DNA of 30,260 bases from a virus, in UHGV virus genome UHGV-0035817; one strand, 5' to 3'. Below are positions 28,315 through 29,086 of the stretch, one piece after another. Every line of letters begins with the position of its first letter. The first letter of the stretch is position 1. The notes under the pieces are model-generated. The model had not been told where the DNA came from, ran no database searches, and was given only the letters and a program-made list of their open reading frames with translations. A program made the translations under genes and the position numbers.

Positions 28315-28587
28315 TCACAACCCCATCCACAAAAGCCATGCATCACGCTGTTCAACCGGTCGGTTATAAAACGCCTCACGTACAGCGCGATTAAACTCAG
28401 GAATGAAAACCCATTTTTCACCGGCACGAGCCTTCGGTTTGCAAGGATCACGCAATTCAATAATTGGTAATTTATTTGCCTTCACCATTTCACTGACGGC
28501 TGTCTTTGGCTTCCCTAATAAATCAGCAAATTTATCCACATGAACCGCATCAAGCGGATACTGAATCACATAATTTTCAGCGTCCAT
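28315..28587 (-). CDS. cox: Cox excisionase / early repressor of Pc (about 90 aa)
   Basis: ...GKPKTAVSEMVKANKLPIIELRDP...RAGEKWVFIPEFN...RDAWLLWMGL resembles P2 Cox; start chosen at MDAENYV (GAGGG RBS); upstream ATG at 28602 is possible. Confidence 0.8.
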   Translation of the reverse strand: MDAENYVIQYPLDAVHVDKFADLLGKPKTAVSEMVKANKLPIIELRDPCKPKARAGEKWVFIPEFNRAVREAFYNRPVEQRDAWLLWMGL

Positions 28588-28723
28588 ATATGGTACCCTC
28601 ATAGGATCCAGCCCTTTCTAAACCACTCAAAACCGTTTAGATGCTGGTTTATTCTCAAATCAATGGAACCTATATAGGTTCCAGTTTTGAGGGAATTTAG
28701 TCCCTATATAGGCACCATGTCAA
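28588..28723. promoter_or_regulatory. Immunity switch region with putative operators (two copies of palindrome CCTATATAGG at 28669-28678 and 28703-28712)
   Basis: Direct repeat of a 10-bp palindrome between divergent C and cox; the first sits inside an 18-bp perfect palindrome GGAACCTATATAGGTTCC. Confidence 0.55.
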
Positions 28724-29017
28724 ATGAAATTAAGCGAAAAGATTAAGGCCTTGCGTGAGGCTGAAGGGCTAAGCCAATCAAAATTCTGTGAAATCATAGA
28801 GTTACCGCTAAGCACACTTAAAAAATATGAAGGAGGAAACTTTGAACCCGGTGGCACAGCTTTGCTAAAAATCACTATGCATCCCACATTCCAAAAATAT
28901 GCTCTATGGCTTATGACAGATAAAACCGCGCCGGACGCAGGACAAATCGCACCGGCTCTCGCGCACATTGGGCCAGAGTCAACAGAGTCCAACCACTCCG
29001 CGAAAAGGATTGGCTAA
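28724..29017 (+). CDS. C: Immunity repressor C (97 aa)
   Basis: ...FQKYALWLMTDKTAPDAGQIAPALAHIGPE... closely resembles the C-terminal half of P2 C as I recall it. Confidence 0.85.
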   Translation: MKLSEKIKALREAEGLSQSKFCEIIELPLSTLKKYEGGNFEPGGTALLKITMHPTFQKYALWLMTDKTAPDAGQIAPALAHIGPESTESNHSAKRIG

Positions 29018-29086
29018 CTCTATATAAAGATTACATTTTCACCATTTGCTACCAAGATGGTGAATACAGCGCCGGAGGGCTTTCTT

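Follow-up and report, generated by a model that had tools for sequence, protein, structure and literature searches.

Repeated palindromes between cox and C of a P2-like phage genome as probable operator sites of the immunity repressor

Introduction

What reads a 10-bp palindrome that occurs twice between the divergent genes cox and C of a P2-like phage genome? The sequence CCTATATAGG was noticed in a stretch of viral DNA of 30,260 bp (hereafter the window), and a first-pass annotation took the two copies for directly repeated operators of a P2-type repressor around the early promoter. We analysed the spacer, its relatives and its natural variants, and conclude that the copies are very probably the cores of two sites at which C silences the early lytic promoter, Pe.

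Two systems serve as references. In phage Wphi, the C half-sites are 10 bp long, 34 bp apart and flank the −10 box of Pe. They were demonstrated with purified C, operator mutants and reporters, using EMSA, SPR and reporter assays, and repression is relieved when they are mutated (PMC1904268, PMC1904263). In P2, two repeated half-sites likewise flank the −10 box of Pe and are bound by a homologous C dimer. [quoted passage not shown] P2 C cannot bind a single half-site (PMC1904263).

Results

Genes and sequence elements of the spacer

The elements of the locus are as follows.

28315–28587, − strand: cox, lytic repressor/excisionase of 90 aa, first gene of the Pe operon (PF10743 Phage_Cox, E 1e-23)
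28608–28647: left half of the spacer, inverted repeat CCAGC..TCTAAAC / GTTTAGAT..GCTGG (TCTAAAC at 28617–28623, GTTTAGAT at 28635–28642)
28664–28683: perfect 20-bp palindrome TGGAACCTATATAGGTTCCA, the longest in the spacer, enclosing the distal core
28669–28678: cox-side copy of CCTATATAGG, putative core of the distal operator site (equivalent to Wphi O2, from the exact match and the Wphi position), at about +10 to +19 of the predicted Pe transcript
28694–28723, − strand: predicted early promoter Pe, with −35 TTGACA (28723–28718), an 18-nt spacer and −10 TAAATT (28699–28694); start predicted near 28687
28700–28715: imperfect 16-bp palindrome GTCCCTATATAGGCAC around the proximal core, with one mismatched pair (89% complementary)
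28703–28712: C-side copy of CCTATATAGG (exact match), putative core of the proximal operator site (equivalent to Wphi O1), within the −35/−10 spacer of Pe
28724–29017, + strand: C, immunity repressor of 97 aa with a helix–turn–helix (HTH_3; homology to P2 C)

C has the sequence of WP_000777029.1; it is 43% identical to P2 C (PDB 2XCJ/2L49; E 1.9e-21, residues 3–97) and 56% identical to Wphi C. It is followed by an int gene of P2 type with Int_N and Phage_integrase domains, and the gene order, cox and C diverging with int downstream of C, is that annotated in P2, Wphi and L-413C. Positions 28588–28723 represent the cox–C spacer if cox starts at 28587 (MDAENYV). This start is used in most annotated records and is the only open one in phage P37, where the homologous upstream ATG of cox runs into a stop codon. 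The list of open reading frames gives longer starts, 28602 for cox and 29057 for int, against 28587 and 29087 (MAIKKL) in most annotated relatives. An ATG at 28717 (ATGTCAA) is homologous to the start codon of P2 C; here it is out of frame and soon terminated. Since C starts 7 nt past this ATG, at 28724, the −35 box of Pe lies just upstream of C and not inside it.

The inverted repeat at 28608–28647 probably marks the Pc/Cox-binding region; an analogous CCAG...CTGG bracket with direct repeats is present in Wphi. The GTTTAGAT element within it matches the P2 operator half-site letter for letter (PMC1904263), but it lies where Pc or Cox sites are expected. Position 28642 is polymorphic, being T in the window, in HQ103 and in about one-fifth of 40 sampled prophage rows, and C in most others. 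The sequence GGTTTAGAT is conserved in loci L029, L032 and L033 of the comparison described below.

The repeat pair and its palindromes

An exact-match search of the 30,260 bp bore out the annotated arrangement: CCTATATAGG occurs only at 28669–28678 and 28703–28712, between the divergent cox and C, with centres 34 bp apart. Allowing up to two mismatches added five matches, giving seven in the whole window where 4.8 are expected. Thus, the window holds no degenerate sites beyond chance, including none like the distal sites of 186 CI, and the same search found neither a copy nor a near copy on the att side of int.

The cox-side copy does lie within a perfect palindrome as had been noted, though this measures 20 bp (28664–28683) rather than the 18 bp given for it. 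Wphi, P37 and SI7 have their 'AGTC...AC' proximal sites at the position homologous to that of the 16-bp palindrome around the C-side copy. With 40% GC, versus 53% in the window, the spacer is AT-rich. When its 121 bases at 28603–28723 were shuffled 20 000 times, an exact direct repeat of 10 nt or more arose in 0.6% of the shuffles; palindromes reached 18 bp or more in 0.05% (0.0005) and 10 bp or more in 13%. The 10-mer equals its own reverse complement, so that a direct pair looks the same as an inverted one, and the flanks of the copies discriminate little: they match at 13 of 16 positions if read as direct and at 14 of 16 if inverted. The earlier description as direct repeats needs correcting on this point.

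Position of the repeats relative to the predicted early promoter

A consensus scan of both strands identified Pe as the sole match of at least 9/12 to the sigma-70 consensus within 28450–28850, with a score of 10/12. The predicted promoter is collinear with the mapped Pe of Wphi and the annotated Pe of P2, and reads towards cox from beside the start of C, its −35 box adjoining the start codon; we infer its exact start. Most related loci have a −10-like box at the same offset. The order on the Pe strand is TTGACA-5-CCTATATAGG-24-CCTATATAGG, so that the proximal copy stands between TTGACA and TAAATT and the pair flanks the −10 box. The mapped Pe of Wphi consists of TTGACA, 17 nt and TATATT (PMC1904263), and its strand reads TTGACA-6-TATTGGTGAC-24-TATTGGTGAC. 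The window has the same site lengths and spacing, and only the offset from the −35 box differs, by 1 bp. Both loci have one site in the Pe spacer, one just past the start and TTGACA beside the start codon of C, and they share ATTCCC..CAAAA between the sites. In contrast to the palindromic CCTATATAGG of the window, which is a predicted site, TATTGGTGAC of Wphi is non-palindromic and clearly direct.

Each repeat contains TATATA, which had been put forward as a −10 candidate. For Pe this did not hold: the best −10 box is TAAATT, located between the repeats, and the proximal TATATA is only 7 nt from the −35 box. The cox-side copy might at most supply a weak −10 box for the opposing promoter, Pc. 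No + strand promoter scoring at least 9/12 was found in 28450–28850 by the consensus scan, and the weak candidates for Pc are TTTAGA (28636) and TTTATT (28648), each paired with TATATA (28671). In HQ103, a Pc reporter gave no signal while Pe was active, and the Pc of that phage has been termed 'mutated/non-functional' (PMC10321612). The spacer of HQ103 is the spacer of the window, and a 100% identical spacer is found in 8 of 40 sampled rows of Escherichia coli prophages. As the same spacer occurs in these prophages, the silence of the reporter need not indicate a defect; it may stem from the assay or from a Pc that is intrinsically weak.

A further variant lies in the predicted Pe itself. In 80 of 420 E. 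coli prophages with this spacer, A28694G turns the predicted −10 box TAAATT into TAAATC, with loss of the most conserved T; it may be a promoter-down mutation by which the prophage is locked in. In genome 41EC2, A28695G is present in addition, a change that is found in L-413C as well.

Immunity type and distribution

The region of cox, spacer and C (28560–29020) is 99.0–100% identical at the DNA level in 18 phage records. Close matches include Yersinia phage L-413C, Salmonella phage FSL SP-004, 'P2' of E. coli T22, R18C and HQ103. Apart from substitutions in the sites of L-413C and R18C and a 7-bp deletion in C of HQ103, none of these differs in substance from the window, and the C reading frame is identical in the window, L-413C and R18C. 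For membership in the L-413C/FSL SP-004/HQ103 immunity type we asked for a C at least 95% identical and the same spacer, and found both; judged by its sequence, the switch is of this type, which is one of the published P2-like types. Nilsson et al. 2011 list L-413C as one of the representative phages of P2 type.

The Wphi (III) and P2 (I) classes, for which the same operator sequence and a C at least 95% identical were demanded, are ruled out for the window: the operators differ, and C is 56% and 43% identical respectively. A Wphi primer from the region is absent in the window, and in Wphi and related records only the 3′ end of C aligns, at about 74%. The window and phages of the Wphi class are expected to be heteroimmune since both the operator sequence and the recognition helix of C (LPLSTLKKYEGG in the window, GIALGTVKNYESG in Wphi) differ.

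Karlsson et al. reportedly defined the P2-like immunity classes in 2006. A full-text literature search for CCTATATAGG returned unrelated papers only and no text naming it as an operator; the repeat pair has probably been drawn in a paper already.

The same spacer is present in 420 of 5,426 complete E. coli genomes (about 8%), once in each and always on the chromosome. For positions 1–25000 of the window, the best phage records cover 80–87% at about 96–97% identity, in four to six pieces. As no phage record covers this part closely, the window is a mosaic Peduovirus genome or prophage in which this immunity module is joined to other late-gene and moron segments.

Both sites are altered in two lytic isolates

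Within the 420 prophages, the 55-bp core at 28662–28716 is identical in 326; the 30-mers that surround the copies are intact in 415 (cox side) and 407 (C side). The prophage variants examined all lie outside the 10-mers, at 28694, 28695, 28713 and 28716. Given about 99% identity among all carriers, conservation taken by itself says little about function, and we used the contrast between prophages and lytic isolates instead.

L-413C is a lytic or clear-plaque mutant of the temperate phage L-413 (PMC3448106, PMC2893161), and R18C has been described as virulent (PMC6823313). R18C has the private changes G28678A in the distal core and C28704A in the proximal core. L-413C has G28666T, in an arm of the distal 20-bp palindrome, and G28712T in the proximal core, and also carries A28695G in the predicted −10 box of Pe. 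Eight further phage isolates belong to the type, and every one of them has unaltered repeats. The four site alleles went undetected among the 420 prophages: a query with R18C gave no seed match, and at most 2 of the 420 records could share any one of the three changes of L-413C in the 55-bp core. The four site changes lie 3.5–7.5 bp from the centre of their site, none of them in the central TATA; this distance would be the reach of the two recognition helices of a helix–turn–helix dimer spanning adjacent major grooves.

For R18C, two of three private changes in 1,061 bp fall within the 20 bp of the cores (binomial P about 1e-3, indicative only). L-413C has four private or rare changes, two of them within the 36 bp of the two sites (P about 7e-3, also indicative only). 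Both values were calculated by hand, on two phages and with site boundaries set after seeing the data.

A third lytic member is HQ103. With a spacer identical to that of the window, it has a 7-bp deletion in C (at window position 28880) causing a frameshift and a 61-aa product. HQ103 forms clear plaques, its truncated repressor is inactive, and a full-length homologue supplied in trans blocks plaque formation (PMC10321612). It seems, then, that phages of this type turn lytic by one of two routes, loss of C or changes in both sites, which is what operators would lead one to expect. In P2 and Wphi, relief of repression requires mutation of both half-sites (PMC1904268, PMC1904263), and the double changes in the lytic isolates parallel this requirement. 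Our search of the literature found no published test of the insensitivity of L-413C or R18C to C.

Site sequence follows the recognition helix of C in related loci

Operators had been proposed for comparison across heteroimmune relatives. A scan of one genome per species gave 80 loci with C homologues, each anchored on the GTCAA beside the start of C. Most loci with a C at least 50% identical have two related sites about 32–34 bp apart at the same offsets, and for the majority of them the match between the sites exceeds that in at least 99% of shuffles. In this comparison, the sequence of the sites varied along with the recognition helix. ST[LYV]KKYE-type helices go with CCTATATAGG-like cores in Kosakonia, Enterobacter, Dryocola, Hafnia and even Pseudomonas, the helix GIALGTLKNYEGG with GTCAyTAAGTCAGGAC-like sites, and STLKKLEG with ..CGGAAC. 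Taken alone, this covariation does not exclude Cox, since Cox co-evolves with C.

Three P2-like prophages of Pseudomonas (loci L066, L079 and L085) have a C helix ST-Y-KKYE and the sites TTCCTATATGGGTTCC and GCCCTATATAGGAACC about 25 bp apart; the core motif of the window is thus found in a distant host at another spacing.

Loci with a Wphi-type helix differ in their distal site: Wphi and L026 have it direct, P37, L034 and L038 inverted. A perfectly or nearly palindromic distal site is also present in L040 (Trabulsiella), L024 (Serratia), L032 (Hafnia) and L017 (Brenneria). Family-wide pseudo-palindromic half-sites are only weakly supported: out of 9 possible symmetric pairs over 18 bp, the mean was 4.7 for proximal and 5.0 for distal sites, versus 3.6–4.1 at control offsets.

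An inverted repeat brackets the distal site well beyond a dimer footprint. In the window it extends over 28651–28696, with CTCAAA..TTTGAG around the 20-bp palindrome. Its counterparts are AAAAGGT-12-ACCTTTT in Wphi and SI7, CCCGAAAAGGT-12-ACCTTTTCGGG in P37 and CCCTCAATGG..CCATTGAGGG in L025; such a repeat is located at 669–698 in L002, 699–732 in L003 and 679–704 in L004, and is found in many of the loci L015–L055. The two arms change together between classes. The repeat may function through the symmetry of the DNA, through bending A-tracts or as a stem in RNA.

Alternative readings of the repeats

The repeats might be promoter elements in which each TATATA serves as a −10 box, the distal one perhaps for Pc. 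TATATA matches four of six positions of the −10 consensus, and L029, L032 and L033 have a conserved TTTAGA at a distance of exactly 17 nt, upstream of the distal TATAT(A/G) or CATATG; in these loci the distal core may double as the −10 box of Pc. In the window, however, TTTAGA (28636–28641) is 29 nt from the distal TATATA, and the hexamer at 17 nt, TTTATT, matches only 3/6. The scan found no + strand promoter, the HQ103 Pc reporter with an identical spacer was silent (PMC10321612), and the proximal TATATA, given its distance from the −35 box, cannot be the −10 box of Pe. Moreover, a −10 function leaves the conserved CC/GG ends unexplained, and these are the ends mutated in the lytic isolates. 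We consider this reading unlikely; as a Pc −10 box, the distal copy of the window would at best have a weak overlapping function. Quite unlikely is also a function of the palindrome as RNA. It would form a stem-loop, either in the Pc leader or at the start of the Pe RNA, and would stabilize the mRNA or attenuate transcription; the second copy would then be incidental. The distal palindrome together with CTCAAA/TTTGAG does fold, with −16.4 kcal/mol in Pe sense (z = −4.4) and −18.4 kcal/mol in Pc sense (z = −3.4), a consensus scan marks it as terminator-like on the − strand, and an inverted repeat at this place recurs in many relatives, such as the AAAAGGT-12-ACCTTTT mentioned above. Yet folding is expected of any palindromic operator, and this stem has only four G–C pairs and a poor T tract. 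If Pe starts as in Wphi, its start falls in the outer arm, and the Pe RNA would lack part of the extended stem. Stem mismatches in the relatives, by inspection, are mixed, with no consistent G–U bias for either strand, and no Rfam family matched. The proximal copy, which has no comparable hairpin, is nevertheless mutated in both lytic isolates.

That Cox or H-NS rather than C binds the repeats is very improbable. Cox, too, is a ligand of the Pe–Pc region in P2-like phages, the Pe and Pc probes of HQ103 shift with H-NS (PMC10321612), and the spacer is AT-rich. But Cox represses Pc and acts at att, and the motif has neither copy nor near copy on the att side of int; the Cox boxes of P2 and the candidate repeats of Wphi are located in the cox-side half of the spacer. 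In Wphi it is C that was proven to bind at the homologous positions. As for H-NS, its binding has too little sequence specificity to account for two exact 10-mers or for mutations confined to the CC/GG ends. A chance repeat, finally, is effectively refuted. Short repeats are common in AT-rich DNA, as the 13% of shuffles with a palindrome of at least 10 bp illustrate, but an exact direct repeat of 10 nt or more and a palindrome of 18 bp or more came up in only 0.6% and 0.05% of the shuffles, the position matches Wphi, and related classes have their own repeat pair at the same offsets.

Discussion

The anatomy of the spacer, the homology of its layout to Wphi and the pattern of natural variation are established. 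Together with the identities of C, cox and int, the Wphi-like layout and the variants support the initial proposal that the repeats are operators of a P2-type repressor around the early promoter. We infer C binding and its stoichiometry, and the following mechanism is proposed. C, a small helix–turn–helix dimer, would occupy the proximal site, filling the −35/−10 spacer of Pe, and the distal site at about +10 to +19, the two being 34 bp or roughly three helical turns apart. RNA polymerase would thereby be kept off Pe or trapped there, with cox and the replication genes remaining silent and lysogeny and superinfection immunity maintained. The site sequence and the recognition helix of C (..LPLSTLKKYEGG..) would together set the immunity specificity.

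Both sites are palindromes in their own right, perfect over 20 bp in one case and imperfect over 16 bp in the other. The simplest reading is therefore that each binds one symmetric dimer, and the 20-bp palindrome TGGAACCTATATAGGTTCCA is probably the full binding site for one symmetric C dimer. Such an arrangement resembles P22 c2 and 434 (434-fold/Cro-fold), where a helix–turn–helix dimer binds a two-fold symmetric site of 14–20 bp with an AT-rich centre that is probably not contacted. Those phages differ in having tripartite OR and OL, whereas two sites three turns apart serve a single promoter here and C is without a C-terminal cooperativity domain. Massad et al. modelled P2 C on the P22 c2–DNA complex, and the recognition of non-palindromic direct repeats was a puzzle for the structural work on P2 C. 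Here and in L040, L024, L032 and L017, each 'half-site' is a 16–20-bp palindrome. We tentatively raise the possibility, to which we give less than even weight, that repressors of the C family bind as ordinary symmetric dimers and that the non-palindromic direct-repeat recognition of P2 type is a degenerate special case and not a distinct mode. If so, this class would be a natural substrate for the first co-structure of C with DNA. In any case, a palindromic C operator is a convenient substrate for studying how the symmetric C dimer of the P2 family reads DNA.

The accepted picture of the P2 switch is unchanged by these data, the operator being the expected element of a heteroimmune member of a well-studied family. 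What is added is the assignment to the L-413C/HQ103 type, the Wphi-like geometry and the private substitutions in both sites of the lytic phages L-413C and R18C. If the operator reading is true, L-413C and R18C would be explained as double operator-constitutive (vir-type) mutants, which offers a simple reason for the lytic habit of L-413C, used in plague diagnosis, and of R18C, used in the Citrobacter rodentium model, despite an intact C gene. The sequence of the sites would then predict which P2-like prophages exclude which superinfecting phages.
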